DNA from: Eledone cirrhosa
Lineage: Eukaryota
DNA: 64,000 bases
NCBI GenBank assembly: GCA_964016885.1
Contig: OZ024753.1
Span: 40,734,001-40,798,000, forward strand
Reading direction: 5' to 3'
Below the pieces are notes generated by a model that saw nothing but the letters and a program-made list of their open reading frames with translations, was not told the DNA's origin and ran no database searches. Each line of letters starts with the position of its first letter. Positions within the stretch are counted from its first letter, which is position 1. The translations under genes were made by a program, and so were the position numbers. Below are positions 343-63,246 of this stretch, piece after piece.

Positions 343-404
<62 letters not shown>

Positions 405-456
405 CATATATATATATATACATATGTGCGTGTGTGCAAGTATTTGTATATATGTA

Positions 457-554
<98 letters not shown>

Positions 555-830
555 TGTGTCTTTATGCATGTATGTGTGTGTATATATTATGTATGTACGT
601 ATGTATATGTGTGTGTGCACGTATCTGTATATGTACACGTGTGTTTGTATACACGTGTGTATATGTGTATGAATATGTATATATATATATATATGTATAT
701 ATGTTTGTGTGTGTGTGTATGTGTTTGCGTTTGTGTGTGTATATATTATGTATGTATATGCGTGTGTGTATGCATGTATTTGTATACGTACACATGTGTG
801 TATGTACGAATATGTTTGTATATATGTATG
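343..830. repeat. Compound (TA)n/(GA)n/(GT)n microsatellite
   Basis: Directly visible. Confidence 0.95.
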
Positions 831-1119
831 TCTTTCTGATTTTTGTTTTTTGTGTTATTGTTGTTGTTTAGTAGTTGCTGTTGCTGTAGTTTTTGTAGTT
901 GTTGTAGTTGTTGTTTTATTTGTTTGTTGTAATGTTTCTGCATTAGTGTTGGGTATGCATGCCATCTGCTGTTACATTGCAATTTATCACTGATCTGAAA
1001 TTGTTCTGAGTTGAAGAGAAGCATTCTTGTTTATGAAACATGGGAAACGGGGAAAGAACGAAAGAGAGAAAGTAGTAGAATGGAATTTACTCCGCCCACC
1101 ATAATTCCATTAAGCTTTA

Positions 1120-1330
1120 CGTAGTCACTTGACCTGCTAGAGATAACAACTAAATTTCCTTTAGATCAGGTCATGTTATCGGTATTTTCCTTTTTTTTTT
1201 TTTTTTTTTTTTTCTTTGATAAATACATATAAAAATGTAGACTGAAATATAAAGACTGGATGGTCATGCCTGACACCTTTTCTAACAAAGGGTTACTCTA
1301 TCAAGAACGCCTTGGATCTAAACAACAATA
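1120..1330 (+). mobile_element. Diverged dispersed repeat ending in ctaaacaacaa (related copies at about 14630-14826, 51741-51930, 35750-35810 on -)
   Basis: Shared motifs cttgacctgctagaaatagcagccaaat, gatggtcatg and ggggctaaacaac between copies. Confidence 0.55.
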
Positions 1331-1520
1331 ATTGTATCTACTTTTGGCACAAGGCCAGCAAAAATACCCAGTGTATTACTGGTACTTTATTTTATCGATC
1401 CCGTAACGATGAAAGGCAGAGTTAACTTCGGCGATATTTGAACTCAGAATGGCAAGAGCCGTAACTCTATGCGTGAAAGCATGGCACCCGACCCTCTACC
1501 GATACTGCCAATCCACCGCC
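1330..1520 (-). mobile_element. tRNA-derived SINE with Meta-like central domain, full length
   Basis: On the - strand: A-box-like tggcagtatcgg, B-box-like gagttcaaat, domain gcctttcatc..ggtcgataaaataaagtacc, tail ggccttgtgccaaaagtag. Confidence 0.9.
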
Positions 1521-1601
1521 TATTAATAATAATAAATAATGCAATCACACAGATGTTTCACAATCGAAATATTCTGAATCTAGAAAGGAATCCCAATGTG
1601 A

Positions 1602-1800
1602 TCTTCTTCTTCGCCCATATATTCCTGAGAGGGTCGTGAGAAGTCAGGGTCTTCAAACACTTCTTCTAGTAGGTCCTGTCGGAAGCTACCGTATCCAACT
1701 GATCCGGCTGAATCCCCAAGCGTGACCAGCCAAGCTCATGTATGTTATCCAACCATCTTACTCTAGATCAGCCCCTGCCACTCCTGGGGTTAGTTTTGCC
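1602..1800 (-). mobile_element. RTE-clade LINE 3' remnant (Expander/Rex3-like C-terminus)
   Basis: The - strand reads SGRG*SRVRWLDNIHELGWSRLGIQPDQLDTVASDRTY*KKCL, followed by a short (GAA)n tail. Confidence 0.75.
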
Positions 1801-2590
1801 CCGGATTTGAGACAGACTTTAGACATAAACATTGAATGAACGTGTTAATTTGGCTAGGAAGAGTAGAGAGTATCTTTCTGAAGGCTGATTAAGGTGTATA
1901 CTAGGAGTAGTTGTAAGGTTTGAGGACAATGTTTTTCCTTTAGGAATATGCCCCTATCAAATGATTTAAGTACCACTTAAGGCCGATCATGAGGCCTCTC
2001 TCCACTAAGTTTTATAATTTTATAAACGATGGCAAACTGCCACAGATAAACGGACCAACATTAACACATGTATCTAAAGGCTTGCGGCAAAAACCTGGAA
2101 TAAGACGCTTGTATTTGGTGTTTCGATCTAATCAGGGATTGTGACGGGATGCCACAAATCCCTCTACGTATTCCGATCCCTCACACACACACTGTGGACG
2201 ATCCTTTCCCATTTCTTGTATCTTGTTTGTTGAGTTCCTATGTATTTTGCTTTTGCACTGTCTGCAGTATTTTGTGTCTTTGCAAATGCTGGTAAAGTAC
2301 ATCATAATAAACAGCAGCAGCAGCAGTAATAGTAGTAGTAGTAGTAGTAGTAGTTGTTGTTGTTGTTGTCACATGACCCTAATTATAATTATCAAGGAAA
2401 AGGAAGTTGTGATGTCCATATATACATATCTTGTCCGTCATAATTTGACCAGAAGAAAGATAGATAGATAGATAGAGATAGAAAGAGATAGAAAGAGATA
2501 GAAAGATAGATAAAAAGAGAGAAAGAGAAATATATTTATACACACAGACACACACACACATATATATATATATGCATACATATACATACA

Positions 2591-2622
<32 letters not shown>

Positions 2623-2839
2623 GAGAGAGAGGGGGTGAGAGAATGACACTTATTGGCAATCTAAAGAGGGAAAGAGATAAAATAAAATAATAACAACAAC
2701 AACAACAGCAACAGCAATAACAACAACAACAGCATTGTGTAAACATTATTTATTTGTTTTCAGAGCTGATAATGTTAAAGAGTCTACAACGGCGACGGAA
2801 GTCAATTAACCACCTGCTCTGAGATATCTTCGTAGACGT

Positions 2840-4805
2840 AATTATCACTACAATAGTGACAGTAGTAATGGCTGCTTCCATAACGACGCCGTCGAGAAAG
2901 GGAGACACAAAACGGAGTCTCTCTCTATGTGGTAGCTTGATATGCTAGAAATAGGTACCAAATTGTCACTACAATAGTGACAGTAGTAATGGCTGCTTCC
3001 ATAACGACGTCGTCGAGAAAGGGAGACACAAAACGGAGTCTCTCTCTATGTGGTATCTTGATATGCTAGAAATAGGTACCAAATTGTCTCTACAATTGTG
3101 AAAGTCGAGAAAGGGAGACACAAAACGGAGTCTCTCTCTATGTGGTAGTTTGATATGCTAGAAATAGGTACCAAATTGTCACTACAATAGTGACAGTAGT
3201 AATGGCTGCTTCCATAACGACGTCGTCGAGAAAGGGAGACACAAAACGGAGTCTCTCTCTATGTGGTAGCTTGATATGCTAGAAATAGGTACCAAATTGT
3301 CACTACAATAGTGACAGTAGTAATGGCTGCTTCCATAACGACGTCGTCGAGAAAGGGAGACACAAAACGGAGTCTCTCTCTATGTGGTATCTTGATATGC
3401 TAGAAATAGGTACCAAATTGTCACTACAATTGTGACAGTAGTAATGGCTGCTTCCATAACGACGTCGTCGAGAAAGGGAGACACAAAACGGAGTCTCTCT
3501 CTATGTGGTAGCTTGATATGCTAGAAATAGGTACCAAATTGTCACTACAATAGTGACAGTAGTAATGGCTGCTTCCATAACGACGTCGTTGAGAAAGGGA
3601 GACACAAAACGGAGTCTCTCTCTATGTGGTATCTTGATATGCTAGAAATAGGTACCAAATTGTCACTACAATAGTGACAGTAGTAATGGCTGCTTCCATA
3701 ACGACGTCGTCGAGAAAGGGAGACACAAAACGGAGTCTCTCTCTATGTGGTATCTTGATATGCTAGAAATAGGTACCAAATTGTCACTACAATAGTGACA
3801 GTAGTAATGGCTGCTTCCATAACGACGTCGTCGAGAAAGGGAGACACAAAACGGAGTCTCTCTCTATGTGGTAGCTTGATATGCTAGAAATAGGTACCAA
3901 ATTGTCTCTACAATTGTGACAGTCGAGAAAGGGAGACACAAAACGGAGTCTCTCTCTATGTGGTATCTTGATATGCTAGAAATAGGTACCAAATTGTCTC
4001 TACAATTGTGAAAGCCGAGAAAGGGAGACACAAAACGGAGTCTCTCTCTATGTGGTAGCTTGATATGCTAGAAATAGGTACCAAATTGTCACTACAATTG
4101 TGACAGTAGTAATGGCTGCTTCCATAACGACGTCGTCGAGAAAGGGAGACACAAAACGGAGTCTCTCTCTATGTGGTATCTTGATATGCTAGAAATAGGT
4201 ACCAAATTGTCACTACAATAGTGACAGTAGTAATGGCTGCTTCCATAACGACGTCGTCGAGAAAGGGAGACACAAAACGGAGTCTCTCTATGTGGTATCT
4301 TGATATGCTAGAAATAGGTACCAAATTGTCACTACAATAGTGACAGTAGTAATGGCTGCTTCCATAACGACGTCGTCGAGAAAGGGAGACACAAAACGGA
4401 GTCTCTCTCTATGTGGTAGCTTGATATGCTAGAAATAGGTACTAAATTGTCTCTACAATTGTGAAAGTCGAGAAAGGGAGACACAAAACGGAGTCTCTCT
4501 CTATGTGGTATATTGATATGCTAGAAATAGGTACCAAATTGTCACTACAATTGTGACAGTCGAGAAAGGGAGACACGAGAGTCTCTCTATGTGGTAGCTT
4601 GATATGCTAGAAATAGGTACCAAATTGTCTCTACAATTGTGAAAGTCGAGAAAGGGAGACACAAAACAGAGTCTCTCTCTCTTTGTGGTATCTTGATATG
4701 CTAGAAATAGGTACCAAATTGTCACTACAATTGTGACAGTCGAGAAAGGGAGACACAAAACGGAGTCTCTCTATGTGGTAGCTTGGTATGCTAGAAATAG
4801 GTAAC
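2840..4805 (+). repeat. Minisatellite with mixed 121-bp and 92-bp units
   Basis: Unit starts at 2845, 2966, 3087 and 3179 give periods of 121, 121 and 92; the short unit lacks the agtaatggctgcttccataacgacgtc segment. Confidence 0.95.
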
Positions 4806-4809
4806 ACAT

Positions 4810-4943
4810 TATTTATTTCATCGACCCCGTAAGGATGAAAGGCAAAGTTAACCTGGGTGGAATTTGAACTCAGACCATAAAGGGGCGTAACTCTATACTG
4901 CAAGGCATGGCGTCCGACACTCTACCGATACTACCAATCCACC
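4810..4943 (-). mobile_element. SINE (same family), 3'-truncated
   Basis: tcgaccccgtaaggatgaaaggcaaagttaacc..tttgaactcag..ctaccgatactaccaatccacc. Confidence 0.9.
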
Positions 4944-5062
4944 AATTATCACTACAATAGTGGCAGTGGCTGACAAACAGAGACAACAAATGGAGTCTCT
5001 CTATGTGGTTGCTTGTTATGCTAGAAATAGGTAACAATCTCTCTCATATACCACTCATGCGT

Positions 5063-5203
5063 ATTTGGCAGTATCAGTGAGAGCGTCAGACGCCATTCTT
5101 TGCAGGATAGAGTCATGACCATTTTATGTTCTGAGTTCAAATCCCGCCGAGGTTAACCTTGCATTTCATCCTTGCGGGGTCGTTAATATAAAGTACCAGT
5201 AAT
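5063..5203 (+). mobile_element. SINE (same family), diverged
   Basis: ttggcagtatcag..ctgagttcaaatcccgccgaggttaac..ttcatccttgcggggtcg..aaagtaccagtaat. Confidence 0.85.
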
Positions 5204-5666: not shown

Positions 5667-6739
5667 TGGATTGGCAGTATTGGTAGAGGGTCAGACACCA
5701 TGCTAGGGTGGTGGATTGGCAGTATCGGTAGAGGGTCAGACACCATGCTAGGGTGGTGGATTGGCAGTATCGGTAGAGGGTCAGACGCCATGTTAGGGTG
5801 GTGGATTGGCAGTATCGGTAGAGGGTCAGACGCCATGTTAGGGTGGTGGATTGGCAGTATTGGTAGAGGGTCGGACACCATGCTAGGGTGGTGGATTGGC
5901 AGTATTGGTAGAGGGTCAGACGCCATGTTAGGGTGGTGGATTGGCAGTATCGGTAGAGGGTCAGACACCATGCTAGGGTGGTGGATTGGCAGTATCGGTA
6001 GAGGGTCAGACACCATGCTAGGGTGGTGGATTGGCAGTATCGGTAGAGGGTCAGACGCCATGTTAGGGTGGTGGATTGGCAGTATCGGTAGAGGGTCAGA
6101 CGCCATGTTAGGGTGGTGGATTGGCAGTATTGGTAGAGGGTCGGACACCATGCTAGGGTGGTGGATTGGCAGTATTGGTAGAGGGTCGGACACCATGCTA
6201 GGGTGGTGGATTGGCAGTATCGGTAGAGGGTCGGACACCATGCTAGGGTGGTGGATTGGCAGTATCGGTAGAGGGTCGGACACCATGCTAGGGTGGTGGA
6301 TTGGCAGTATCGGTAGAGGGTCGGACACCATGCTAGGGTGGTGGATTGGCAGTATCGGTAGAGGGTCAGACACCATGCTAGGGTGGTGGATTGGCAGTAT
6401 TGGTAGAGGGTCGGACACCATGCTAGGGTGGTGGATTGGCAGTATCGGTAGAGGGTCGGACACCATGCTAGGGTGGTGGATTGGCAGTATCGGTAGAGGG
6501 TCGGACACCATGCTAGGGTGGTGGATTGGCAGTATCGGTAGAGGGTCGGACACCATGCTAGGGTGGTGGATTGGCAGTATCGGTAGAGGGTCAGACACCA
6601 TGCTAGGGTGGTGGATTGGCAGTATTGGTAGAGGGTCGGACACCATGCTAGGGTGGTGGATTGGCAGTATCGGTAGAGGGTCGGACGCCATGTTAGGGGG
6701 GGGTTTGCAGTATCGGTAGAGGGTCAGACGCCATGTTAG
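5667..6739 (+). repeat. 45-bp tandem array (about 24 copies) made from the SINE 5' head
   Basis: Unit ggtggtggattggcagtatcggtagagggtcagacaccatgctag; a 15-aa period in the ORF track. Confidence 0.95.
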
Positions 6740-6932
6740 GGCGGTGGATTGGCAGTATCGGTAGAGGGTCAGACGCCATGCTTTGACGCATAGAGTTACG
6801 GCCCTTGCCATTCTGAGTTCACATCCCGACGGGGTTAACTTTGCCTTTCATCCTTACGGGGTCGATGAAATAAAGTACCAGTAATGCACTGGGGTAATTG
6901 CTGGCCTTGTGCCAAAAAAGTAGAAACAATTA
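6740..6932 (+). mobile_element. Full-length SINE terminating the 45-bp array
   Basis: ggcggtggattggcag through ggccttgtgccaaaaaagtagaaacaatta. Confidence 0.92.
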
Positions 6933-7017
6933 TATATTAAGTATAAAGACGTGGCTGTCATTGCTTGAATACCTTTCATCAAAGGTCTGCTCACTCATGA
7001 TTGACCTGCAGCTGAAC

Positions 7018-7521: not shown

Positions 7522-8957
7522 CAGGCATGGGCAACCTTTTACGACGTTTGAGGAAAAGAGGCATTTGGAATTATTGGTGTTGTGACCAAACTGGCAACAA
7601 AACCAGGCTGAAATTCACCGGAGATTGCCCTCCGAAACAGCATCAATCATATGAGCCTAGTCCGATAAAACTACTCAAGATATGGATATTGTCTGTCTAA
7701 CCACTTCACAAACCCGTCCTTAATAGATTTTACATCATTTAGATCAGGCATGGGCAATCTTTTTCGAGAAGCGGACCGCAATATGGCTCATCATCAGGCG
7801 AGCCGCAAGCGCTAATTTACATTCGTGCCCATATTAAAAAAACGGGCAGTAACTCAGGTTGTTTTGCTTTGTTTCTTCAGAATTCCTACACGTTGTTTTC
7901 CTCAAACGTAAAAATGATAGAAAGATAAATTACGACTGAAAAGTTGGGGTAAAAAAATCAGAAAGATTTCACTTTGGTGACGTAGGCGAGACATTCAGAA
8001 AGATTTCATTTTGGTGACTTAGGCGAGACAGTCAGAAAGATTTCACTTTGGTGACTTAGGCGAGACATTCGGAAAGATTTCACTTTGGTGACTTAGGCGA
8101 GCTATTCAGAAAGATTTCACTTTGGTGACTTAGGCGAGCTATTCAGAAAGATTTCACTTTGGTGACTTAGGCGAGCTATTCAGAAAGATTTCACTTTGGT
8201 AATTTAGGCGAGACATTTAGAAAGATTTCATTTTGGTGACTTAGGCGAGACATTCAGAAAGATTTCACTTTGGTGACTTAGGCGAGACATTCAGAAAGAT
8301 TTCACTTTGGTGACTTAGGCGAGACATTTAGAAAGATTTCATTTTGGTGACTTAGGCGAGACATTCAGAAAGATTTCACTTTGGTGACTTAGGCGAGCTA
8401 TTCAGAAAGATTTCACTTTGGTGACTTAGGCGAGCTATTCAGAAAGATTTCACTTTGGTGACTTAGGCGAGCTATTCAGAAAGATTTCACTTTGGTGACG
8501 TAGGCGAGACGTTCAGAAAGATTTCACTTTGGTGACTTAGGCGAGACATTCAGAAAGATTTCACTTTGGTGACTTAGGCGAGACATTTAGAAAGATTTCA
8601 CTTTGGTGACTTAGGCGAGCTATTCAGAAAGATTTCACTTTGGTGACTTAGGCGAGCTATTCAGAAAGATTTCACTTTGGTGACGTAGACGAGACATTCA
8701 GAAAGATTTCACTTTGGTGACGTAGGCGAGACATTCAGAAAGATTTCACTTTGGTGACTTAGGCGAGACATTCAGAAAGATTTCACTTTGGTGACTTAGG
8801 CGAGACATTCAGAAAGATTTCACTTTGGTGACTTAGGCGAGACATTTAGAAAGATTTCACTTTGGTGACTTAGGCGAGCTATTCAGAAAGATTTTCACTT
8901 TGGTGACTTAGGCGAGCTATTCAGAAAGCTTCACGGGCCGCAGGTTGCCCATGACTG
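7522..8957. mobile_element. Non-autonomous hAT (Charlie-like) DNA transposon
   Basis: TIRs caggcatgggcaacct (7522) and aggttgcccatgactg (8942-8957); perfect 8-bp TSD gtttaaat at 7514-7521 and 8958-8965. Confidence 0.88.
7959..8930 (+). repeat. 37-bp tandem array (about 26 copies) inside the hAT element
   Basis: Unit cagaaagatttcactttggtgacttaggcgagacatt; starts at 7959 and 7996. Confidence 0.95.
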
Positions 8958-10186: not shown

Positions 10187-10193
<7 letters not shown>

Positions 10194-10296
10194 ATATTAA
10201 ATAAATGAAAACTATATTTATAAAACCATATTTATTCTATTATATATATTTCAAGGGTACCAAAACTTTGGTACGCTCTCATCAGATAAAATACAA
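10187..10296 (-). mobile_element. Family A TA-inserted cassette with hammerhead-like motif
   Basis: The - strand reads ttttat-CTGATGA-gagcgtacca/tggtaccctt-GAAA-tatata-TA-atagaa, then the shared tail aaatatggttttataaatatag. Confidence 0.75.
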
Positions 10297-10377
10297 AGTT
10301 TGTTTTATAATTGCTCTGAATCCGTTATAAACATTTATATTTGTTGAATTACCAACAAATTGAATATCCCTTTTGCT

Positions 10378-11220: not shown

Positions 11221-11300
11221 AGATGAGAGAGGTAGAGACAGTGAATGAAGAAGTGAGAGAGAAAGACAGAGGAAATATATATATATATATATGTATATAT

Positions 11301-11499
11301 AACGAAGGAAATGTGGTAAGGAACCAGGTGGACCATAACGCACCAAAGTACTCAATACTTGAGGTAGTAGAGTGGGTAATAGGAACCAGTAAGACCCCGA
11401 CAGCTGAGCTCAAGCCGTTTCGACGGCTAATTCTCAAATTAGCCGTCGAATTAGCCGTCGAAACGGCTTGAGCTCAGCTGTCGGGGTCTTACTGGTTCC

Positions 11500-11500
<1 letters not shown>
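11301..11500 (-). mobile_element. Family B TA-inserted fold-back cassette (long arm -, short arm +)
   Basis: The long arm matches the reverse complement of 63117-63246; an inverted short arm at 11449-11500 ends at gttcct and runs into (TA)n. Confidence 0.88.
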
Positions 11501-11579
<79 letters not shown>

Positions 11580-11773
11580 GTATATTAGGGAGAGGATCAG
11601 GGGTGTATAACACTCCACTTATACAACAGGCAGTATAAGGTTAGCTCGATGTCTGAGGACAGAGCCGTGATATTGTTCCACTTATAGTGCGGATGAAACA
11701 ATGTTAGCAAGTAAAGATATGCATATGCCATAGGCGTTCTTTGTTATTGATTATATATATATATATATATATG

Positions 11774-12379: not shown

Positions 12380-12437
<58 letters not shown>

Positions 12438-12450
12438 GATAAATCTACCA

Positions 12451-12651
12451 AGTCATAGTTCTTTCGTCACACACTCTGTGACCTCTTCAGTGACTGGGGA
12501 TTTCTTTCTTCGTTTCTGTGCCTTTCCTTTCTTCTATCCTACGCCATTTTCAAAATGGCGTAGGATAGAAGAAAGGAAAGGCACAGAAACGAAGAAAGAA
12601 ATCCCCAGTCACTGAAGAGGTCACAGAGTGTGTGACGAAAGAACTATGACT
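12451..12651. repeat. Perfect palindrome, 100-bp arms, 1-nt loop
   Basis: Axis at c12551 (cgccatttt-c-aaaatggcg). Confidence 0.95.
12607..12651 (+). ncRNA. Putative minimal hammerhead ribozyme (mirror copy at 12451-12495 on -)
   Basis: agtca-CTGAAGA-g-gtcaca/tgtgac-GAAA-gaac-TA-tgact; stem I agtca/tgact is perfect. Confidence 0.6.
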
Positions 12652-13265: not shown

Positions 13266-13275
13266 ATAGATATAT

Positions 13276-13438
13276 AACGAATAAAGTGCGGTAAGGAACC
13301 AGATGAACCATAACGCACCAGAGTACTCAATACTGGGTAGTAGAGTGGGTAATAGGAAAAGAGTCGGGACCCCGACGGCTGAGCTCCGGCCGTTTCGACA
13401 GCTAGGTCTGAACAGTTCAGACCGAGCTGCCGAAACGT
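13276..13438 (-). mobile_element. Family B cassette with a short fold-back stub
   Basis: aacgaat..ggtaaggaaccag..gtactcaatact..gacggctgagctccggccgtttcgacagct followed by inverted agctgccgaaacg. Confidence 0.85.
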
Positions 13439-13929
13439 CTCTATATATGTTGGCTTATCTACACCAGCACATACACTTCTATTTACGATCAATTACATAA
13501 TATATCAGCCTTTATGCGAGTATCATCATCATCATCACCATCATCATCATCACCACCATCACCATCATCATCATCATTATTATTATTATTATTATTAGAC
13601 TCTTACAGTAAAGTACAAACACAATTAGTCTGTAGACAACAGGGAAATCAACTAAATTGGTGAATCTCTATAAAATACACGTGTCTCCTTTTGAAGCGAT
13701 GATTTCTTTCTTGTTTTTCTTCATTCTCTCTTTTTTGTCTTTTTAGTTTTTTTAGTTTCTTTTATTAGATTAATGGTATCATTATTTTTTCATTTTATAT
13801 TTTTGTGTGTTTTATAAATTTCACGTATATTTTTTTCTTTATTCTTGACAATTGCTTCTTTCCAATCTCATCATTGATTGATTTTTTCCAATTCTACTCC
13901 GTCATTACATTATCATTATTAGAAAGAAT

Positions 13930-14330
13930 GGCGGTGGATTGGCAGAATCAGTAGAGAGTCGGACGCCATGCTTTGACACATAGAGTTACGGCCCTTGCCA
14001 TTCTGAGTTCAAAGCCCGCCAAGGTTAACTTTGCCTTTCATCCTTACGGGGTCGATAAAATAAAGTACCAGTAATACACTGGGATAATTGCTGGCATTGT
14101 GCCAAAAGTAGAAACAATTATCATTATTAGAAAAAAATGGCGGTGGATTGGCAGAATCAGTAGAGGGTCGGACACCATGCTTTTCAGCATAGAGTTACGG
14201 CTCTTTACGGTCTGAGTTCAAATCCCGCCGAGGTTAACTTTGCCTTTCATCCTTACGGGGTCGATAAAATAAAGTACCAGTAATGTACTTGGTTAATTGC
14301 TGGCCTTGTGCCAAAAGTAGTAACAAATAT
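13930..14330 (+). mobile_element. Two head-to-tail full-length SINEs (13930-14120 and 14139-14330)
   Basis: Both are preceded by tatcattattagaaa, and tattagaaaga recurs after the second copy. Confidence 0.92.
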
Positions 14331-15448: not shown

Positions 15449-15535
15449 AGGAGGTGAGTTTTATTGTAGTACAATAAAGCAATGCAGATATCGGATAAGA
15501 AGCACTCTACAGTTTGTAGGACTGGAGTATACATA

Positions 15536-15629: not shown

Positions 15630-15742
15630 ACGATATTAACAAATGGAAATTATATTTATAAAACCATATTTATTTCATTATACATATTTCAAGGATACCA
15701 AATTAAATTATGGTATGCCTTCATCAAACAAAATACAATATA
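15630..15742 (-). mobile_element. Family A cassette (hammerhead core mutated to TTGATGA)
   Basis: Reverse complement of 18262-18372. Confidence 0.8.
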
Positions 15743-16785
15743 TACCAGTTTTATAAATATATATACATATCGCACTCTCCATCCCTCTGTATAGTGAGAA
15801 AATGGGGTCCCACGTGCTGTCCTCCCCAGAGTCCCAGTGGACTTGAATAGATGAGGTGTTTCACCAGAGAATGGTCAGGGAGATGCGCTGGAAGAGCCAT
15901 TCCATGTATGTGTTATAGTGGGGGAATGGATGACGTTTAAAGTGCAAAGTATTCCATAGTAAATATTAGACAGAAAGAACAGAAGTAAATATCACAAACC
16001 ATCCCATTAAACTGTCTAAATATTCCGCCAGTCTATTACCGCAAACCTGCAATCTATTTATCAACTAGAGTACACTCTAATATATCAACCAGTTCACCAT
16101 CTTTCATTCCATCAACTATTATTACTTCAATTCTGTAATTCTCTCATCTATTCCGTTATTCTTTATGTTCTATAATTCTGTCAATCCTTCGGTTATATTT
16201 ATGTATATATTTGTTTGTTTTCCAGTTCTGCATTCCAGTCATTCTTCTATTCATTATTTATTATTCCAGGTCCCCATTCCACTTATTTCTTAATCTCATC
16301 TCTTCTCTTAATTAATTATTCTTTCAGTAATTTTTTTTGACGTGACATCCCTCATTTCATCCTCTATGTTCTTTTCTTTATTTCAATCTTCATTCACATA
16401 ATTTTTCTTTTCAATCTTGACCTTTCTCGTCCTTTGTTTGATTTCTTATAAACTTCTACTGACATTTCTCCTTAGTTAGCATAAAAAATAAAATTTCTAA
16501 AGGCATCCAACAATGTCTCCGCTCTTCCTTCTTTCTCCAGCGTTTTCCAAATTAACTAAATCACCTATAGTCAGACATTTTAGACTGTATACAAAATAAA
16601 AGGCTATCCAAATAATTTGCACGAGTATGTACTACTCTAGTACATACTAGTGCACGTGTGTGAGGGTAGGGGTGGGTGGAAGTGCGTGTGTGTGTGTGTA
16701 TACATGTTGTGTCTGTGTGTTTGTCTGCCTATGTATATATCGGGGTCTCTGTCCTTATGTTTGACTGTTTTCTCCCTCCCTCCTA

Positions 16786-17531: not shown

Positions 17532-17578
<47 letters not shown>

Positions 17579-17776
17579 TTTAAAATCCAAAGTCAATAAA
17601 TACGCCCGCCAGGTGTTTTCATTCTGATGATTGAAAGCAACATTTTTTTGCTTTTAAGAAACCACTGGTAAATGATATACTTACCTTATGTTGTTTATTA
17701 CATAACTATTAAGCTCTGTTACCTACATAGAGCACTCTTTTTTTCCTGGACTTTTCCGACGGAATTACTTAATTCA

Positions 17777-17913
<137 letters not shown>

Positions 17914-18103: not shown

Positions 18104-18186
<83 letters not shown>

Positions 18187-18226
18187 TATCCGGATGGCCT
18201 CCAAAAGCAACGGTCACATTTTAAAA

Positions 18227-18372
18227 GGGTACGTCAATGTCTATTTATAAAACTGTTATATATTGTATTTTGTCTGATGAAGGCATACCATAATGTAACT
18301 TGGTATCCTTGAAATATATATAATGAAATAAATATGGTTTTATAAATATAGTTTCCATTTATTAATATTGTA
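18227..18372 (+). mobile_element. Family A cassette with hammerhead-like motif at 18268-18328
   Basis: ttttgt-CTGATGA-aggcatacca/tggtatcctt-GAAA-tatata-TA-atgaaa; the 3' end runs into (TA)n. Confidence 0.8.
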
Positions 18373-27586: not shown

Positions 27587-27955
27587 GAAAGTTTGAGCCT
27601 CCTCTTGAACAGGAACATTATATCTAATGGATGTGAAAATCGGATAAAATGCCCCTCATTACAGAAAGACAGTTGAAAGAATCGTGTGCCTGGAGTTGAG
27701 CCTTGCATGTCTCGAATGCCATATGAGTGCGTTAGCCACAGCTGTTTGTGTGCTCATGTATTTTTGTGAGTGTATATGCGAAAGTTTGCGTTGTCACTGC
27801 ATTGGTGTTTGGATAACGAAACTGTAGAAATACAATATGGCCAGAGATAGGAAGCGTTTGAATTCAACCAAGGTGGGGTTTCTGCAATGGCAGTGAGAGG
27901 GCCCTAGGTTTGTGATGTTAGATCTTGGATATGTAGGCAGAGTAGTCATAGACTT

Positions 27956-28246
27956 ATGACTGGCGATCGTATCTGCTCAACATTACCAATTACATCAATT
28001 GTCAAGTCAAGAGTACTCAAACTATACGGTCATATAAACAGATTAACTCGTGGTGTGAGTAGATTATGCCTAGAAGGAAAGTTGGCTGGTGAGAGAAGCA
28101 GAGACCGGCAGCCAAAGCGATGGCTTGATAATGTTAACTTATGGACTGGACTTGATCTTTGCACTTTGAAATCTACTGCTGGTGATCGAACTTTGTGGAG
28201 AGAGAAATCTCATGTTGATGCGCAGACTTCAACTGGCGGAGTTTAG
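27956..28246 (+). mobile_element. RTE-clade LINE ORF C-terminal remnant
   Basis: LKLYGHINR..LEGKLAGERSRDRQPKRWLDNV..WTG..AGDRTLWR, the typical RTE/BovB-like C-terminus. Confidence 0.85.
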
Positions 28247-28485: not shown

Positions 28486-28656
28486 GAAAAGAGTCAGGAT
28501 CCCGACGGCTGAGCTCCGGCCGTTTCGAAGCTGTCAAAACGGCCGGAGCTCAGCCGCCGAGGTCCTGACTCTTTTCCTATTATCCACTCTACTATCCAGT
28601 ATTGAGTACTTTGGTGCGTTATGGTCCAGCTGGTTACTTACCACACTTCCTTCGTT
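28486..28656 (+). mobile_element. Family B fold-back cassette (short arm -, long arm +)
   Basis: gaaaagagtcaggatcccgacggctgagctccggccgttt / aaacggccggagctcagccg..ctgactcttttcctatt..cttcgtt. Confidence 0.85.
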
Positions 28657-28662
28657 ATATAT

Positions 28663-29564: not shown

Positions 29565-29928
29565 AGTGTGCTGGTATACATTAAAGACACTTAGACTCAC
29601 ATACACGCACACACGCACATAGAAACAGACACAGACCCACATGCACACATACCTATATATATATATATGTGTGTGTATGTGTGTATATATATGTGTGTGT
29701 GTATGTGCACATATATATATGTATATATATGCGTGTGTGTGTGTGGAGAAAGAGAGAGAGTGAATGGTAGAGAGAGAAAGAAAGAGAAATATAACCGAAA
29801 AAGATTATATTCGTGTACTTGTGTGTGTGGTGTGTGTGTATGTGTGTGTATGTGTGTGTGTTTGTGTGTGTGTATTCACATCTGGAATAACCTTTCCTGT
29901 ATACACGCAAGATATATATATATATATA

Positions 29929-29974
<46 letters not shown>

Positions 29975-30030
29975 CACATACACACACACACATATACATA
30001 TACACACACACATATATATATATAGGTATT

Positions 30031-30722: not shown

Positions 30723-30770
30723 CGACTTTATATGTTATAGTTTCGTCTTTTTATGTTTAGAGTTATTATT

Positions 30771-30959
30771 AATTGTTTCTACTTTTGGCACAAGGCCAGC
30801 AATTATCCTAGTGTATTACAGGTACTTTATTTTATCGACCCCGTAAGGATGAAAGGCAAAGTTAACCTCGGCGGTATTTGAACTCAGATCATAAAGGGCT
30901 GTAACTCTGTGCTGCAAACATGGCGTGCGACCCTTTACCGATACTGGCAATCCACCGCC
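30771..30959 (-). mobile_element. Full-length SINE with TSD
   Basis: tagag(t/c)tattattaat occurs on both sides. Confidence 0.92.
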
Positions 30960-31651: not shown

Positions 31652-31654
31652 TAT

Positions 31655-31777
31655 AACGAAGGAAATGTGGTAAGGAACCAGATGGACCATAACGCACCAG
31701 AGTACTCAATACTTAGGGTAGTAGAGTGGGTAATAGGAAAAAGTATGACTCCGACGGCAGAGCTCAAGCCGTTTCGA
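31655..31777 (-). mobile_element. Family B long arm, abutting a SINE
   Basis: aacgaaggaaatgtggtaaggaacc..gagctcaagccgtttcga. Confidence 0.88.
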
Positions 31778-31781
31778 TTAT

Positions 31782-31970
31782 TAATTGTTTCTACTTTTGT
31801 CACAAGGCCAGCAATTATCCCAGTGTATTACTGGTACTTTATTTTATCGACCTCGTAAGGATGAAAGGCAAAGTTAAACTCGCCGGGATTTGAACTTAGA
31901 CCATAAAGGGCCGTAACTCTTTGCTGCAAAGCATGGCGTCCGACGCTCTACCGACACAGCCAATCCACCA
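31782..31970 (-). mobile_element. Full-length SINE
   Basis: aattgtttctacttttg through gccaatccacca. Confidence 0.9.
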
Positions 31971-35629: not shown

Positions 35630-36069
35630 ATATATGAATGTTCAGCTTGGTAATGACAAATTATGAAAGAGGTGGTGGTCGTGGTGGTGGTGTTGGTCGT
35701 GAGGGAGGGTGATGATATTAATTGCGTTTTTCTTGCTCTTGTTGCTTATATTTAACCCCAGGGTATTCTTGGTCGAGCACACCCATCATCAGAGATATTC
35801 TAGCTGTGTTTAAGCCATCAGATTCTCTATAATCAGGACACCCAGCACCAGTGTGCACATAAATGGCCTGTAAGATATTATTTGTCAGTGATTTGGTTGC
35901 TATTTTCGGCGGTTTGAACGACAGCTTTAATCTCAATTCCTGGCAAGAAATAGCAGCCAAGTCACATTCACTTATTTCTTCAAACATTTAATATCTTAAA
36001 AGTATACACAGACGTTGAAGTAACTAAGACTAGTTTATTCCACTAAAATGGCATGACCCTAATTATATA

Positions 36070-38362
36070 AATACATACATATATACGTATACACATGCAT
36101 ACATATATACTCATATATATGTATATATATATAAACATACATACATATATACGTATACACAGGCATACATATATACTCATATATATGTATATATATATAA
36201 ACATACATACATATATACGTATACACAGGCATACATATATACTCATATATATGTATATATATATAAACATAGATACATATATACGTATACACATGTATAC
36301 ATATATACTCATATATATGTATATATATATATAAACATACATACATATATACGTATACACATGCATACATATATACTCATATATATGTATATATATATAT
36401 ATAAACATACATACATATATACGTATACACAGGCATACATATATACTCATATATATGTATATATATATATATAAACATACATACATATATACGTATACAC
36501 AGACATACGTATATACTCATATATATGTATATATATATAAACATACATACATATATACGTATACACATGCATACATATATACTCATATATATGATATATA
36601 TATAAACATACATACATATATACGTATACACAGGCATACATATATACTCATATATATGTATATATATAAACATACATACATATATACGTATACACATGCA
36701 TACATATATACTCATATATATGTATATTATATATATAAACATACATATATACATACGTATACACATGCATACATATATACTCATATATATGTATATATAT
36801 ATATAAACATACATACATATATACGTATACACAGGCATACATATATACTCATATATATGTATATATATATAAACATACATACATATATACGTATACACAT
36901 GCATACATATATACTCATATATATGTATATATATATAAACATACATACATATATACGTATACACATGCATACATATATACTCATATATATGTATATATAT
37001 ATAAACATACATACATATATACGTATACACAGGCATACATATATACTCATATATATGTATATATATATAAACATACATACATATATACGTATACACAGAC
37101 ATACATATATACTCATATATATGTATATATATATAAACATACATACATATATACGTATACACAGGCATACATATATACTCATATATATGTATATATATAT
37201 AAACATACATACATATATACGTATACACATGCATACATATATACTCATATATATGTATATTATATATATAAACATACATATATACATACGTATACACATG
37301 CATACATATATACTCATATATATGTATATATATATAAACATACATACATATATACGTATACACATGCATACATATATACTCATATATATGTATATATATA
37401 TAAACATACATACATATATACGTATACACATGCATACATATATACTCATATATATGTATATATATATAAACATACATACATATATACGTATACACAGGCA
37501 TACATATATACTCATATATATGTATATATATATAAACATACATACATATATACGTATACACAGGCATACATATATACTCATATATATGTATATATATATA
37601 TAAACATACATACATATATACGTATACACAGGCATACATATATACTCATATATATGTATATATATATAAACATACATACATATATACGTATACACATGCA
37701 TACATATATACTCATATATATGTATATATATATAAACATACATACATATATACGTATACACATGCATACATATATACTCATATATATGTATATATATATA
37801 AACATACATACATATATACGTATACACAGGCATACATATATACTCATATATATGTATATATATATATAAACATACATACATATATACGTATACACAGGCA
37901 TACATATATACTCATATATATGTATATATATATAAACATACATACATATATACGTATACACATGCATACATATATACTCATATATATGTATATTATATAT
38001 ATAAACATACATATATACATACGTATACACAGGCATACATATATACTCATATATATGTATATATATATAAACATACATACATATATACGTATACACAGGC
38101 ATACATATATACTCATATATATGTATATATATATATATAAACATACATACATATATACGTATACACAGGCATACATATATACTCATATATATGTATATAT
38201 ATATATAAACATACATACATATATACGTATACACATGCATACATATATACTCATATATATGTATATATATATATAAACATACATACATATATACGTATAC
38301 ACATGCATACATATATACTCATATATATGTATATTATATATATAAACATACATATATACATA
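36070..38362 (+). repeat. Minisatellite of about 66 bp built from TA/CATA motifs
   Basis: Unit aaacatacatacatatatacgtatacac(at/ag)gcatacatatatactcatatatatg(ta)n; a 22-aa period in the ORF track. Confidence 0.95.
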
Positions 38363-38503
38363 CATTTCTATATATATACTGAAGTAAAAGTTAAGTGAAA
38401 TATCCAAGAGTAAGAGCACTCAGTCCATAGTACGAGTTTAGTATAAATAATTACAACAGTGACATAAACAGCTACTCAAGTTTTATTGGGTTCTGGGAAG
38501 TTG

Positions 38504-38641: not shown

Positions 38642-38823
38642 TACGTTATTCCGGGTTGAATCGGAGGTAACCACAGTAAGTAAGGTACTCAATACATTGC
38701 AGAGTATAAAAGTTTTAATATAGATGAGATTCTACAAGACTAGAACTGTTTCATTCTTTAGAAATCATCAGGATTCTTGATGATTTCTAAAGAATGAAAC
38801 AGTTCTCGTCCTGTAGAATCTCA

Positions 38824-38882: not shown

Positions 38883-38885
<3 letters not shown>

Positions 38886-39083
38886 AAAAGGTATGACCCC
38901 GAAGGCAGAGCTCAAGCCGTTTCGACCGCTATTTCTGGACTCAGAAAGTCCAGAAATAGCCGTCGAAACGGCTTGAGCTCTGCCGTCGGGGTCATACTTT
39001 TTCCTATTTACCACTCTACTACCCTAAGTATTGAGTACTCTGGTGCGTTATGGTCCATCTGGTTCCTTACCACAATTCCTTTG

Positions 39084-39085
<2 letters not shown>
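38883..39085 (+). mobile_element. Family B fold-back cassette
   Basis: Short inverted arm 38883-38941, loop, then a long arm ending ccttt gtt into (TA)n. Confidence 0.9.
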
Positions 39086-39134
<49 letters not shown>

Positions 39135-39382
39135 TGTATATATATATACACACACACACATATATATATATATGGTTCGTCAGAATTATTGAGCGCTTGC
39201 CACACATCTCGGAATTCGCTAATTCCAAAGCCGAAATACGATTCTCGGTAATTTATATTTGTATATATATATATATATATATATATATGCAAAATTTTTA
39301 TTTAAAATTGTTGGGTTACAACAAGTAAATATTTTATAACTGATATAAAGCACTCGACAAGTTTTAATGGTCGCTTATATTT

Positions 39383-39528
39383 ATGGTACGTCAAAATTAT
39401 TTATAAAACAGTTTATATATTGTATTTTATCTCACGAAGGCATGCCATATTTTTAATATGGTATCCCTGAAATATGTATAATGAAATAAATATGGTTTTA
39501 TAAATATAGTTTCCATTTGTTTAATATC

Positions 39529-39530
<2 letters not shown>
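39383..39530 (+). mobile_element. Family A cassette (core mutated to CTCACGA)
   Basis: Aligns to 18227-18372. Confidence 0.8.
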
Positions 39531-43519: not shown

Positions 43520-44790
43520 GTATGTTATATCTTGGATGCATTTCTTAATAGTCAAATGTTAAAAATTGCAGAATTCTACGTTCATGATTTCCATTACAGG
43601 ATCGGAGATTTCTTGGGAAATAGTATTGCTATAATTGGAATGATTTGTACTTTAGAATAAAAAATAAAAATTTCTTTCTTTATGGTGATTTTCCTACAAT
43701 TGTTCGTATTGTTTCTTTTAGACTGATACAATCTTAGATCAATTATATGCTTCTAACACATCTTTTTGTAGTTTAAATGCCTTTTTTGTACAATTATCTT
43801 TCATATCACTTTGCAATCATAAGTTTCGATCCGAGGATTAATCTCCTGCCAACCGTTTGCCGTATTACAATCACTAATTATATTATCTGAGACGACAATA
43901 TTTTTTTTTCGTGAGTTATCTTATGAAAAAAAAAGCAAGATCAAATTAAATATAACGAGAAAATTTACAAAAAAAAAAAATGTGCAGCGAATTACATTCT
44001 GTTTTCTTCTAAAGATACATAGGACAAATCTGTTTCATCAATTAGGGTTATATTTAAGCTTCAAGATTGTCGTATGTCAATCAGATAAGTTAGATTTTTA
44101 TTTTACTATATAGGAAACGTTTTGTAATGACGAAATAAGATCTTCACTTTTCTTCTGAGAGATAATGCAGCTTAGAGTAAAATTAGTAATACATTTGTCA
44201 AGGGAATAAAGCAATTGTATGGTTTAATTGCTTCTGATAAATCTATGAGGTTCAGTCAAGTTTTATAAAAGCAGCATCTCAATCTGAAGAGGACGTTCAA
44301 CAACAACAAATATCTTTGCAGATCCTCAGAGACAAGTGTGGTAGTGGATGGGAGAATAAGTATTTTGAGGATTGCCACAGAAGAAAACATCGTATAAAGA
44401 CATATACAGAGATCCTATGAACAGTGACATGAAATAAATCTTGCCCTGAAAGAGACTTGCGGTAAATAAGACCCCTGACATAACTAAAACCAAACAGATA
44501 GTGGTAGAGCTCAACCAGGTAGGGGTTCCTCCAACAGGAGAGAGAAGGACAGGGATTGCATTGGTTTGGAAAACATGAAATGTTTAATCTACCCTCCGGT
44601 ATAAGACGACCATCTGTTCATTTGAAACTTTGTGTTCCATTCATTCGTAATATCTCTTCCATTGCTTCTCATTGTAATAGTTTTTATACTTTACAGTCAC
44701 TGATGCCAGCCTTGCAAATGTTTCTGACCATTGTACACTTCCTCATGTTTTTTCTAAGCCATTGCAATAAATTAATAAATTAATAAATTA

Positions 44791-44977
44791 ATTGTTTCTA
44801 CTTTTGGCACAAGGCCAGCAATTATTCCAGTGCATTACTGGTACTTTATTTTATCGACCCCGTAAGGATGAAAGGCAAAGTTAACCTCGGCGGGATTTGA
44901 ACTCAGATCATAAAGGGAGGTAACTCTATGCTTCAAAGCATGGCGTCCGACCCTTACCGATACTGCCAATCCACCGC
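44791..44977 (-). mobile_element. Full-length SINE with TSD
   Basis: ttg(c/t)aataaattaataaattaataaa occurs on both sides. Confidence 0.92.
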
Positions 44978-45264
44978 CCTTGTAATAAATTAATAAATTA
45001 ATAAATAAATAATTGTAAAGAATGATATCAAGTTTTGCTGAAGATCTACTTGCGTCCACTTGATTATGACTAAGATGTCGACAGCAGAATTGAATTATAT
45101 GTTTTATATGGCTTGGATGATGAAAAGTGTTGCTAAATATTGAAATATGCATCAATACCGGACAGTATTAAATTTTTAAGAATTTCTTGTTATAATCGAA
45201 TACAGATCGATGAAGGGAAATCGAATTCTAATGATAATAATGATAACAGCACTAGTAACATATA

Positions 45265-48227: not shown

Positions 48228-48272
48228 TGTAAAATTATAGCGAAGTATCGTGGAAAATGCATGGGAATATAA

Positions 48273-48461
48273 ATTATTTCTACTTTTGGCACAAGGCCAG
48301 CAATTATCCCACTGTATTACTGATACTTTATTTTATCGACCCCGTAAGGATGAAAGGCAGAGTTAACCTCGGCGAGATTTGAACTCAGAACGTAAAGGGC
48401 CGTAACTCAATGCCACGATGCATGTTGTCCGACGCTCTACCGATTCTGTCAATCCACCACC
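48273..48461 (-). mobile_element. Full-length SINE with TSD
   Basis: tgggaatata occurs on both sides. Confidence 0.9.
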
Positions 48462-48872: not shown

Positions 48873-49890
48873 ATGTCAATGGGTTCTTCTGTGAATGTCA
48901 ACATGGAAATGTCAATTGGTTCTTATGTGAATGTCAACATGGAAATGTCAATTGGTTCTTATGTGAATGCCAACATGGAAATGTCAATTGGTTCTTATGT
49001 GAATGTCAACATGGAAATGTCAATTGGTTCTTATGTGAATATCAACATGGAAATGTCAATTGGTTCTTATGTGAATGTCGACATGGAAATGTCAATTGGT
49101 TCTTATGTGAATGTCAACATGGAAATGTCAATTGGTTCTTATGTGAATGTCAACATGGAAATGTCAATTGGTTCTTATGTGAATATCAACATGGAAATGT
49201 CAATTGGTTCTTATGTGAATATCAACATGGAAATGTCAATTGGTTCTTATGTGAATGTCAACATGGAAATGTCAATTGGTTCTTATGTGAATATCAACAT
49301 GGAAATGTCAATTGGTTCTTATGTGAATATCAACATGGAAATGTCAATTGGTTCTTATGTGAATATCAACATGGAAATGTCAATTGGTTCTTATGTGAAT
49401 GTCAACATGGAAATGTCAATTGGTTCTTATGTGAATATCAACATGGAAATGTCAATTGGTTCTTATGTGAATATCAACATGGAAATGTCAATTGGTTCTT
49501 ATGTGAATGTCAACATGGAAATGTCAATTGGTTCTTATGTGAATATCAACATGGAAATGTCAATTGGTTCTTATGTGAATATCAACATGGAAATGTCAAT
49601 TGGTTCTTATGTGAATATCAACATGGAAATGTCAATTGGTTCTTATGTGAATGTCAACATGGAAATGTCAATTGGTTCTTATGTGAATATCAACATGGAA
49701 ATGTCAATTGGTTCTTATGTGAATATCAACATGGAAATGTCAATTGGTTCTTATGTGAATGTCAACATGGAAATGTCAATTGGTTCTTATGTGGATGTCA
49801 ACATGGAAATGTCAATTGGTTCTTATGTGAATGTCAACATGGAAATGTCAATTGGTTCTTATTTGAATGTCAACATGGAAATGTCAATTG
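48873..49890 (+). repeat. 36-bp tandem array (about 28 copies)
   Basis: Unit atggaaatgtcaattggttcttatgtgaat(g/a)tcaac. Confidence 0.95.
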
Positions 49891-53595: not shown

Positions 53596-53665
<70 letters not shown>

Positions 53666-53698
53666 TATATATATAACACCAATCAAACCCCTTTTATA

Positions 53699-53745
53699 GC
53701 TCTGATGGATCCTACGGTTACACGTAAGGAAGAAACATTGTAAGC
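53699..53745 (+). ncRNA. Degenerate hammerhead-like motif
   Basis: gct-CTGATGG-atcctacg/cgtaagga-a-GAAA-cattg-TA-agc. Confidence 0.4.
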
Positions 53746-53896
53746 CAATAAAAATCTGTTGATGTTGTAGACGCTCTTGTGTTCTTTTTCATATATACGG
53801 CTCTGCTCCAAAGCATAGAGCTAATTATTATGCTGCCAATACCTTAACGGGACACGGGTATATAATACCTAACTCCTACTAACCTAAGTATATATA

Positions 53897-54003
53897 TATA
53901 TATGAATAAAGTTAGTCCTTCATCAGTGATCTTCCAGCCATCATTGGTATTTCATCGCTGGTTGGAAGATCACTGATGAAGGACTAACTTTATTCATATA
54001 TAT
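53897..54003. repeat. TA-flanked inverted repeat containing CTGATGA
   Basis: gaataaagttagtccttcatcagtgatcttcca / tggaagatcactgatgaaggactaactttattc. Confidence 0.9.
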
Positions 54004-54119
54004 ATATATATATAAGTATTAAGTTGTTAAACAATATTCGATGATTATGTCAAAGAATGAGTTTTACCTTGATTAAATCTTAACCATTTAACATCTCAGG
54101 GTATGTCATGTATCATTGT

Positions 54120-54172
54120 ATTTTGTCTGATGAGGACGTACTGTTGTACATCCGAAATATGTATAATAAAAT
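54120..54172 (+). ncRNA. Putative type-I hammerhead ribozyme (best match in the window; family A relative)
   Basis: attttgt-CTGATGA-gga.c.gtac/gtac.a.tcc-GAAA-tatgta-TA-ataaaat; canonical core, G-C closing pair in stem II, 7-bp stem I. Confidence 0.72.
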
Positions 54173-54288
54173 GTAATTGATCAAAAGAACATCTATTTTA
54201 TTAATACTTATATTTTAATATTATATATATATATATATATATACATTATATTATATATTATACATATATATAGAGATAGATAGATAGT

Positions 54289-54378
<90 letters not shown>

Positions 54379-54457
54379 AATATATTACACAAATAGAATT
54401 AAGAGTATTCCGCAGTCCGAACTCAGAAGAAAATTCTCTATTCTTCTTTGAGCTAAT

Positions 54458-54620
54458 AATTGTTTCTACTTTTGGCACAAGGCCAGCAACCATCCAGTGT
54501 ATTACTGGTACTTTATTTTATCGATCCCGTAAGGATGAAAGGCAAAGTTAACCTTGGCGGGATTTGAACTCAGAATGGCAAGGGCAGTAACTCTATGCTG
54601 GAAAGCATGGCGTCCGACCT
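54458..54620 (-). mobile_element. SINE, 5'-truncated, with TSD
   Basis: tctttgagctaataat occurs on both sides. Confidence 0.9.
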
Positions 54621-54701
54621 TTAAGCTAATAATATCTTTGAGCTAATAATATTATTATTATTACTGTGAGCTGCGGAATACTCTTAATTCCGATCCTTCT
54701 A

Positions 54702-54819
<118 letters not shown>

Positions 54820-62459: not shown

Positions 62460-62462
<3 letters not shown>

Positions 62463-62665
62463 AAGGAGTAGGACCCGGACGGCTGAGCTCAACCCATTTC
62501 GACGGCTAATTCTGGACTAAAACATTTTACTCCAGAATTAGCCGTCGAAACGGCTTGAGCTCAGCCGTCGGGGTCCTACTCGTTCCTATTACCCACTCTA
62601 CTACCCTAATCATTGAGTACTTTGGTGCGTTATGGTCCACCTGGTTCCTTACCACATTTCCTTCG

Positions 62666-62667
<2 letters not shown>
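62460..62667 (+). mobile_element. Family B fold-back cassette
   Basis: Short inverted arm 62460-62519 and long arm 62529-62667; both ends lie in (TA)n. Confidence 0.9.
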
Positions 62668-63116: not shown

Positions 63117-63120
<4 letters not shown>

Positions 63121-63246
63121 CCGTCGAAACGGCTTGAGCTCAGCTGTCGGGGTCTTACTGGTTCCTATTACCCACTCTACTACCTCAAGTATTGAGTACT
63201 TTGGTGCGTTATGGTCCACCTGGTTCCTTACCACATTTCCTTCGTT
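63117..63246 (+). mobile_element. Family B long arm only
   Basis: ttagccgtcgaaacggcttgagctcagctgtcggggtc..catttccttcgtt, flanked by (TA)n on both sides. Confidence 0.9.

Follow-up and report, generated by a model that had tools for sequence, protein, structure and literature searches.

As far as the accessible portions of the published reports go, the pseudo-LTRs of Penelope-like elements (PLEs) contain hammerhead ribozymes, which for the most part are solitary copies left by truncated elements (PMC4209133), and the short palindromic helix III of these ribozymes has been described as a dimerisation feature, with low and dimer-dependent activity (PMC4209133; PMC6765202). PLE insertions comprise inverted 5'-truncated copies, one end of which bears a tail, and (TA)n is favoured as a target by several clades, a bias that has been ascribed, as a hypothesis, to the endonuclease linker (PMC8557442). 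The Hydra clade, which includes the Octopus bimaculoides family Hydra-1_Obim, combines insertion into (TA)n with sense hammerheads near the 3' end and a palindromic helix III of 7-10 nt; hammerheads in TA-targeting PLEs are therefore already published, octopus included (PMC8557442). For an element of Anolis the tail has been reported to correspond to the distance separating two RT start sites, the uncut RNA to serve as template and the ribozyme to cut only with protein (PMC11167929). PLEs have also been given as recently active in O. vulgaris, and the accessible part of that report does not mention ribozymes (PMC13282606).

In this study, a type I hammerhead was identified in a 207-bp island of the window, i.e. 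the whole stretch of 64,000 nucleotides of Eledone cirrhosa DNA that was analysed, which is non-coding and microsatellite-rich. We consider it likely that this island is what remains of a TA-targeting Penelope-like retrotransposon truncated to its 3' end (pseudo-LTR), with a probable place in the Hydra clade; its ribozyme is predicted to cut only weakly and in pairs. A hammerhead in a Penelope-like remnant is one of thousands expected in animal genomes and changes little. The family to which this copy belongs, here called X, may nevertheless serve as a clean test case: it is high-copy, its core is intact, the mismatch in stem II is conserved and the dimer helix is all-AU, and the host genome seems to bear a two-site priming footprint in many families.

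The hammerhead motif and its predicted folding

An earlier note on this DNA had placed a hammerhead at 54120..54172 with a predicted cut after A54165. Both points were supported: the core (CUGAUGA, GAAA and AUA) is intact and three helices are present, over a somewhat wider span (Table 1). The CUGANGA and GAAA boxes follow each other in order and an NUH triplet is present, helices I and II are paired and the open ends lie in helix I, as in type I hammerheads; judged by the AUA triplet, A54165 would be H17. The motif had also been called the most canonical candidate, and among five relatives an intact core together with G10.1-C11.1 occurs only in the present copy (core at 54127). The ATG inside the core was considered as the start of a Poseidon-type ORF and rejected, as the frame opens for just 16 codons.

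Table 1. Positions of the hammerhead motif, its island and related features in the window
Feature	Position	Strand	Remarks and basis
Left (TA)n target remnant	53996..54014	none	Sequence
Inverted distal "tail" segment (Y)	54015..54067	-	Loose ends behind 54067, independent Y-X joints; tail assignment inferred
5'-truncated sense end, family X	54065..54221	+	Reads have loose ends upstream of 54065; in runs from three organisms, TA follows 54221
Right (TA)n target remnant	54222..54243	none	Sequence
Type I hammerhead ribozyme motif	54116..54176	+	Stem I of 11 bp here; inner 8 bp kept in relatives
Stem I strands	54116-54126 / 54166-54176	+	Sequence
Catalytic box CUGAUGA (C3-A9)	54127..54133	+	Sequence; G5 is its sole variant among the 40 read variants listed
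Stem II	54134..54153	+	7 pairs, G10.1-C11.1 basal, C.A unpaired at position 4, 4-nt loop
GAAA box	54154-54157	+	Sequence
Palindromic helix III strand	54157-54164	+	8/8 positions self-pair, two of them G.U
Predicted cleavage nucleotide H17 = A54165	within 54154..54165	+	Triplet AUA
Sister family A copy	18186..18370	+	Core 18274 intact; self-comparison, descriptor scan
Sister family A copy	10189..10377	-	Core 10285 intact, inverted tail piece present; self-comparison, descriptor scan
Sister family A copy	15631..15759	-	Core C3 to U (15727); self-comparison, descriptor scan
Sister family A copy	39289..39529	+	Core G5 to C (39431); inverted tail piece 39289-~39370 bears tail octamer
Tail hairpin sites	17713-17737, 15500-15528, 38414-38437, 38683-38705, 53800-53821, 11644-11665	none	By pattern
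Tail hairpin, family B copy	39013-39040 (and five more family B copies)	none	By pattern

A stable helix III was not found in the monomer, where it consists of 2 bp with a 4-nt loop and its addition costs 2.8 kcal/mol; in the folding calculations stability is reached only as an 8-bp intermolecular helix, as in dimer-type hammerheads. Two monomer folds together were calculated at -10.6 kcal/mol; the double-hammerhead fold, at -22.2, is 11.6 lower. The ribozyme fold lies 6.7 kcal/mol above the monomer minimum (MFE) and the dimer 5.4 above the cofold MFE, the pairing probability of stem I is 0.00 in a 157-nt context, and the folding z-score of the ribozyme stretch is -0.96. The folding agrees with a predicted weak, dimer-type ribozyme, and a monomer construct would probably give a negative cleavage result even if the ribozyme were functional. 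The TA-type palindrome that the earlier note had seen in helix III is indeed present in five copies, the strand reading ATATATAT or ATATGTAT in every one of them, with (TA)n adjoining all five. Its proposed resemblance to the target is not needed to explain it, since the known PLE dimer helix is a better reading of the palindrome than a target mimic.

Exact-core type I matches numbered four in the window (17624, 18274, 54127 and 10285) versus 0.01 per shuffle (one in total over 100 block shuffles), and a relaxed type I descriptor gave seven versus a mean of 0.075 (200 shuffles), both descriptors having been composed post hoc with the matches already known. Rfam gave no match at gathering score anywhere in the window, and its 15 matches at E<=10 in 53600-54300 included no hammerhead family; its models may not cover PLE hammerhead variants. 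With a covariance model built from the five copies, no sixth close member was found in the window, the next-best matches being 29926-29993 (TA repeat-like), 17613-17680 and hairpins. Pattern scans for relatives gave none in viral, metagenome and prokaryote contigs; two metagenome loci from a looser scan (L001 and L002) were rejected as chance, both being devoid of stem II. By eye, L002 holds at 361-5064 a phage-like replication cluster (nuclease-like, primase/helicase-like, AAA and SSB-like frames), the match in it being an unrelated chance one.

Relatives in the window and copies in the reads

The earlier note had united the present copy with four others in one family A, under the coordinates 10187, 15630, 18227, 39383 and 54115. 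These proved to be element ends and not ribozyme positions; the three stem II sequences quoted with them are present in the window, with cores at 18274 and 54127 on the plus strand and at 15727 and 10285 on the minus strand. Two of the four family A copies carry core mutations (Table 1). Identity of the present copy to the A copies is 73-84% within the ribozyme, 52-58% upstream and 55-66% downstream, the shuffle medians being 52% and 68%, and self-BLAST of the window gave no row connecting it to family A. With its flanks at the shuffle baseline, membership in family A could not be upheld; on sequence comparison the copy belongs to a sister family, X, with the ribozyme alone common to X and A, as would be expected if selection had kept the ribozyme in the parent elements.

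The claim that stem II keeps its pairing among the relatives stands for nine pairs, which are paired in each of the five sequences, but not for position 4, where every one of the five has a mismatch (C.C in the A copies, C.A in the present one). Covariation in stem II was likewise supported, four of the nine pairs having changed on both sides in the five-sequence alignment. The covariation score was equalled by 3 of 500 shuffles and the count of two-sided changes by 19 of 500, figures which for five related sequences are not a significance test. When the partner strand was slid by 1-3 columns in the five-ribozyme alignment, pairing fell from 93% to 33-62%. In stem I the relatives keep the inner 8 bp and not the outer three pairs. 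Loop II varies in length between 4 and about 11 nt, a range that speaks against a fixed tertiary contact between loop I and loop II.

Seven sequencing runs from three studies contain the stretch or part of it, five of them at least half of its words. No RNA run is listed among them, which has no bearing on expression. The read comparison took in X1, X5, X6 and X9 at 80% likeness and left out X7 (share 0.12) and X8; X1-X3 possibly stem from the same sample as the window. Family X is a high-copy family: X1 yielded 1086 contigs, X5 and X6, which come from other organisms, 3 apiece, and X9 gave 1906 raw reads. Variants of X1 that keep their pairs are 54125 G>A (47%), 54153 C>T (28%) and 54173 G>A (29%), whereas 54173 G>T (13.5% of X1 depth) breaks its pair; pairing is kept in three of the four inner-stem variants at 10% or more of X1 depth. 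At 54150, A>C (29% of X1 depth) turns C.A into the C.C of family A with the mismatch retained, and a loose end behind 54146 (150 reads) marks a subfamily in which stem II is longer and the mismatch keeps its position. Outer stem I pairs are disrupted by variants at 54117, 54118 (G>T) and 54176. One of the 19 positions of core and helix III is variable versus 32 of 188 elsewhere, among the variants listed, a contrast that is weak alone. The G5 variant makes up 0.1% in X1 and 60 of 932 reads, from four starts, in X9. In the RAD library reads end at 54175-54178; since a GATC site lies at 54179, these ends were not taken as a family boundary.

Insertion architecture and the tail hairpin

The island (54015-54221) is flanked by (TA)n runs on both sides, and its inverted segment Y and sense part are joined over three common letters, 54065-54067. 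Reads split it at this point: other copies of the right part differ upstream, other copies of Y differ downstream, and reads run on upstream of 54065 into further common sequence. In other loci Y-X joints were found at 54102, 54118, 54119, 54132 and 54188, and TA continues behind 54221 in the reads of all four runs compared. The distance from the predicted cut site to the fixed end at (TA)n is 56 nt in X and 48-52 nt in family A, so the hammerhead occupies a terminal part near the 3' end, as in Penelope-like elements. Joints of 54067 to 54222 on opposite strands (42 reads, three start places, one run) have a shorter side of 44 letters that equals Y, and by the geometry of these joints in that one run the reverse complement of Y would follow the X end in sense. 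The 5' truncation, an inverted partial copy and a tail at one end also agree with PLE insertion, the inverted part here being, putatively, the tail only.

Among 13 inverted-repeat islands of the window picked by eye, 11 share a layout in which one arm directly abuts (TA)n and a tail extends the second, by 14-17 nt in four islands and by 67-100 nt in seven, four of the latter being one family. The order hammerhead, TA-rich site, hairpin, end is complete on one strand in islands 17575-17779 and 53676-53888. In the former a hammerhead (core 17624), whose helix III is one loop base off that of Hydra-1_Obim in the accessible part of PMC8557442, is followed by a tail hairpin on the same strand; the latter has a hammerhead-like motif at ~53702, with core A9 changed to G and a palindromic 7-nt helix III, then a TA-rich site and a tail hairpin, and the tail of 11580-11751 is related to its tail. 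In a near-perfect inverted-repeat island at 12435-12650, each arm bears a textbook minimal hammerhead in which a bulged base follows A9, and one arm has a tail of 17 nt; the island 53904-53995 has no tail, its arms ending 16 nt after CUGAUGA, inside the would-be ribozyme. Segment 15443-15540, considered as a family A tail, was dropped as part of a neighbouring inverted-repeat island. Family B comprises seven TA-flanked copies (11293-11505, 13270-13440, 28486-28660, 31652-31777, 38884-39084, 62461-62666 and 63118-63245) with tails of about 80 nt. GAAA, a palindromic helix III loop and GUC give their right half the look of a hammerhead, but all copies lack the CUGANGA half, as they end or become inverted at the presumed stem II.

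Repeats of other kinds are also found in the window. A SINE-like repeat of ~200 bp, with 84-93% identity between copies, is present at 1327-1540, 6740-6940, 13909-14330, 30768-30959, 31780-31970, 44787-44997, 48268-48461, 54454-54622 and other places; one copy lies within the TA-flanked inverted island 54377-54703 and interrupts it, and a 45-bp minisatellite at 5667-6782 derives from one end of the repeat. Long minisatellite arrays with periods of 121/92, 37, 66 and 72 bp occupy 2840-4810, 7958-8928, 36064-38380 and 48873-49890. A frame of 112 aa at 27908-28246 had no Pfam match, and we take it to resemble the C-terminal end of an RTE-type LINE ORF.

The architecture of the X island may be explained as follows. 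The RT-endonuclease of the element would nick both strands of a (TA)n tract, cDNA would be primed twice on the element RNA, 56 nt past the ribozyme and, at the tail, ~100 nt further, and both cDNAs would abort early and then be joined to give the inverted tail plus sense end. Since each of the five copies contains the cut site, 48-56 nt before its end, the template RNA was putatively uncut there. In tandem precursors, two ribozymes may exchange strands via their palindromic helices III and so cut the RNA down to unit length, probably helped by protein. The solitary copy, having no partner in cis, is probably inert.

A bulged hairpin, RCTC...GAGY and mostly then RCTY, occurs 43-71 nt before the distal (TA)n end in the tails of several unrelated families. 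With the RCY condition, 10 were found in the window versus a shuffle mean of 0.44 (maximum 4), six of them being one family, so that five families are counted, by a descriptor composed post hoc; there is no excess in the window without this condition (16 versus 10 in shuffles). Three of seven hairpins fold better than shuffles (z <= -2). The tail octamer of family X is seen only in loose ends behind 54067, and that of family A at 39348-39355. In the accessible Hydra consensi of PMC8557442, compared by eye, hairpin plus octamer is clear in three of six, looser in a fourth and not clearly present in two: the ends of Hydra-2_Amil and Hydra-2_Ajap read ribozyme, TATAT, hairpin, octamer, Hydra-1_Ajap starts with the hairpin, and Hydra-1_Crog has the looser form. 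The presence of the hairpin just after the proximal end, in at least five unrelated families of the window and in coral and sea cucumber Hydra consensi, leads to the speculative proposal, to which we give rather less than even credence, that it might be a clade-wide signal bound by the RT-endonuclease, positioning both priming sites and switching on an otherwise misfolded, dimer-dependent hammerhead upstream of it. No description of the hairpin was found by literature search or in the accessible main text of PMC8557442. If the proposal is true, a protein-binding signal in the tail would make RT start-site choice and the assistance of ribozymes by PLE proteins testable in a second clade.

Origin of the island and comparison with known systems

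No RT sequence was recovered from the window: Pfam gave no RT or GIY-YIG match on the 150 longest of 359 candidate frames (sub-cutoff unrelated ones only), and short motif regexes, the sole cover of the other 209, found no convincing RT or GIY-YIG motif, the copy being 5'-truncated. A Penelope-like origin is nevertheless strongly indicated, and Hydra clade membership, which at the protein level is recognised by the RT/EN motifs RWK and DKT, a CxCX5C linker, no CCHH and RT phylogeny, is moderately probable. The preference for (TA)n agrees with this clade and is not diagnostic, as it is common also to Neptune and Naiad; a canonical hammerhead with a palindromic helix III of 3-4 bp, as seen by eye against the accessible part of File S2 of PMC8557442, agrees with it too. 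Families X and A were not found in the accessible part of the literature searched, and their exact ribozyme strings are absent from the accessible Hydra/Naiad supplement of PMC8557442.

The island might alternatively be the solo monomer of a non-autonomous non-LTR retrozyme, a protein-free unit of 150-450 bp with tandem arrays and circular RNA. A type I hammerhead, no visible ORF, low GC and high copy number are what such a unit would have, and according to the accessible parts of the literature retrozymes occur in molluscs, also as dispersed monomers, and may derive from pLTRs (PMC7229834; bioRxiv 10.64898/2026.07.22.740005). We regard this origin as unlikely, as no tandem partner is present in the window, none of eight read joints is a head-to-tail return, reads continue into common sequence before the sense end, and the inverted tail with variable 5' truncation fits PLE insertion. 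An origin by chance, or as a functionless fossil without ribozyme ancestry, would account for the silence of Rfam, for a hammerhead fold that is not the MFE and for pairing as such, AT-rich sequence pairing easily; it is made highly improbable by the excess of matches over shuffles with both descriptors, by the structure-keeping changes and by conservation that is limited to the ribozyme.

It has also been considered whether the TA-like helix III is a targeting or trans device that pairs with (UA)n RNA or (TA)n DNA, guiding insertion or cutting microsatellite transcripts. While one of the two TA palindromes stands beside (TA)n in all five copies, the TA-adjacent hammerheads 17624 and 12612 of the window carry non-TA helix III palindromes, and so, with unrelated sequences, do the TA-targeting Hydra families in the accessible part of PMC8557442, where the endonuclease linker is hypothesised to be the source of the TA bias. 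Moreover, by sequence logic the 3' strand of stem I after the cut site could not come from pure (UA)n, and we give such a device very little credence. The truncated 3' end of a TA-targeting PLE thus seems the best explanation of the island.

Comparison with the accessible parts of the published descriptions places this locus among several systems. Like non-LTR retrozymes (PMC7229834; bioRxiv 10.64898/2026.07.22.740005), it has a type I hammerhead with a weak helix III and is non-coding as found; unlike them, it has no tandem array or head-to-tail joint in the window or among the eight joints, and shows inverted-tail insertions. The PLE hammerheads of Cervera and de la Pena 2014 (PMC4209133) are likewise solitary, heterogeneous, genome-wide copies from truncated PLEs, and their variants with a palindromic helix III share G10.1-C11.1, a long helix II, the palindrome itself and a dimer-dependent low activity, which here is predicted only; stem I is longer here (8-11 bp versus 4-5), there is no unpaired base between 9 and 10.1, and helix III exceeds the minimal form. 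With Poseidon of Anolis (Frangieh et al. 2024, PMC11167929) the locus shares copies that span the cut site, two RT start sites downstream of the ribozyme that define the tail, as inferred here, and a protein-assisted ribozyme, as proposed here; it differs in tails of 14-17 or 67-100 nt instead of 30-40, in the (TA)n target and in an ATG in or after the core that opens no long frame. Hydra-clade elements differ from it in that here no ORF was recovered, the 8-nt helix III consists almost purely of AU, A9 is followed by no bulged nucleotide, and stem II has a conserved C.C/C.A mismatch. In common with it they have (TA)n insertion, a sense type I hammerhead near the 3' end and a palindromic helix III of ~7-10 nt, and in common with the families of the window a short TA-rich site after the ribozyme, followed in several consensi, by eye, by the hairpin plus octamer.
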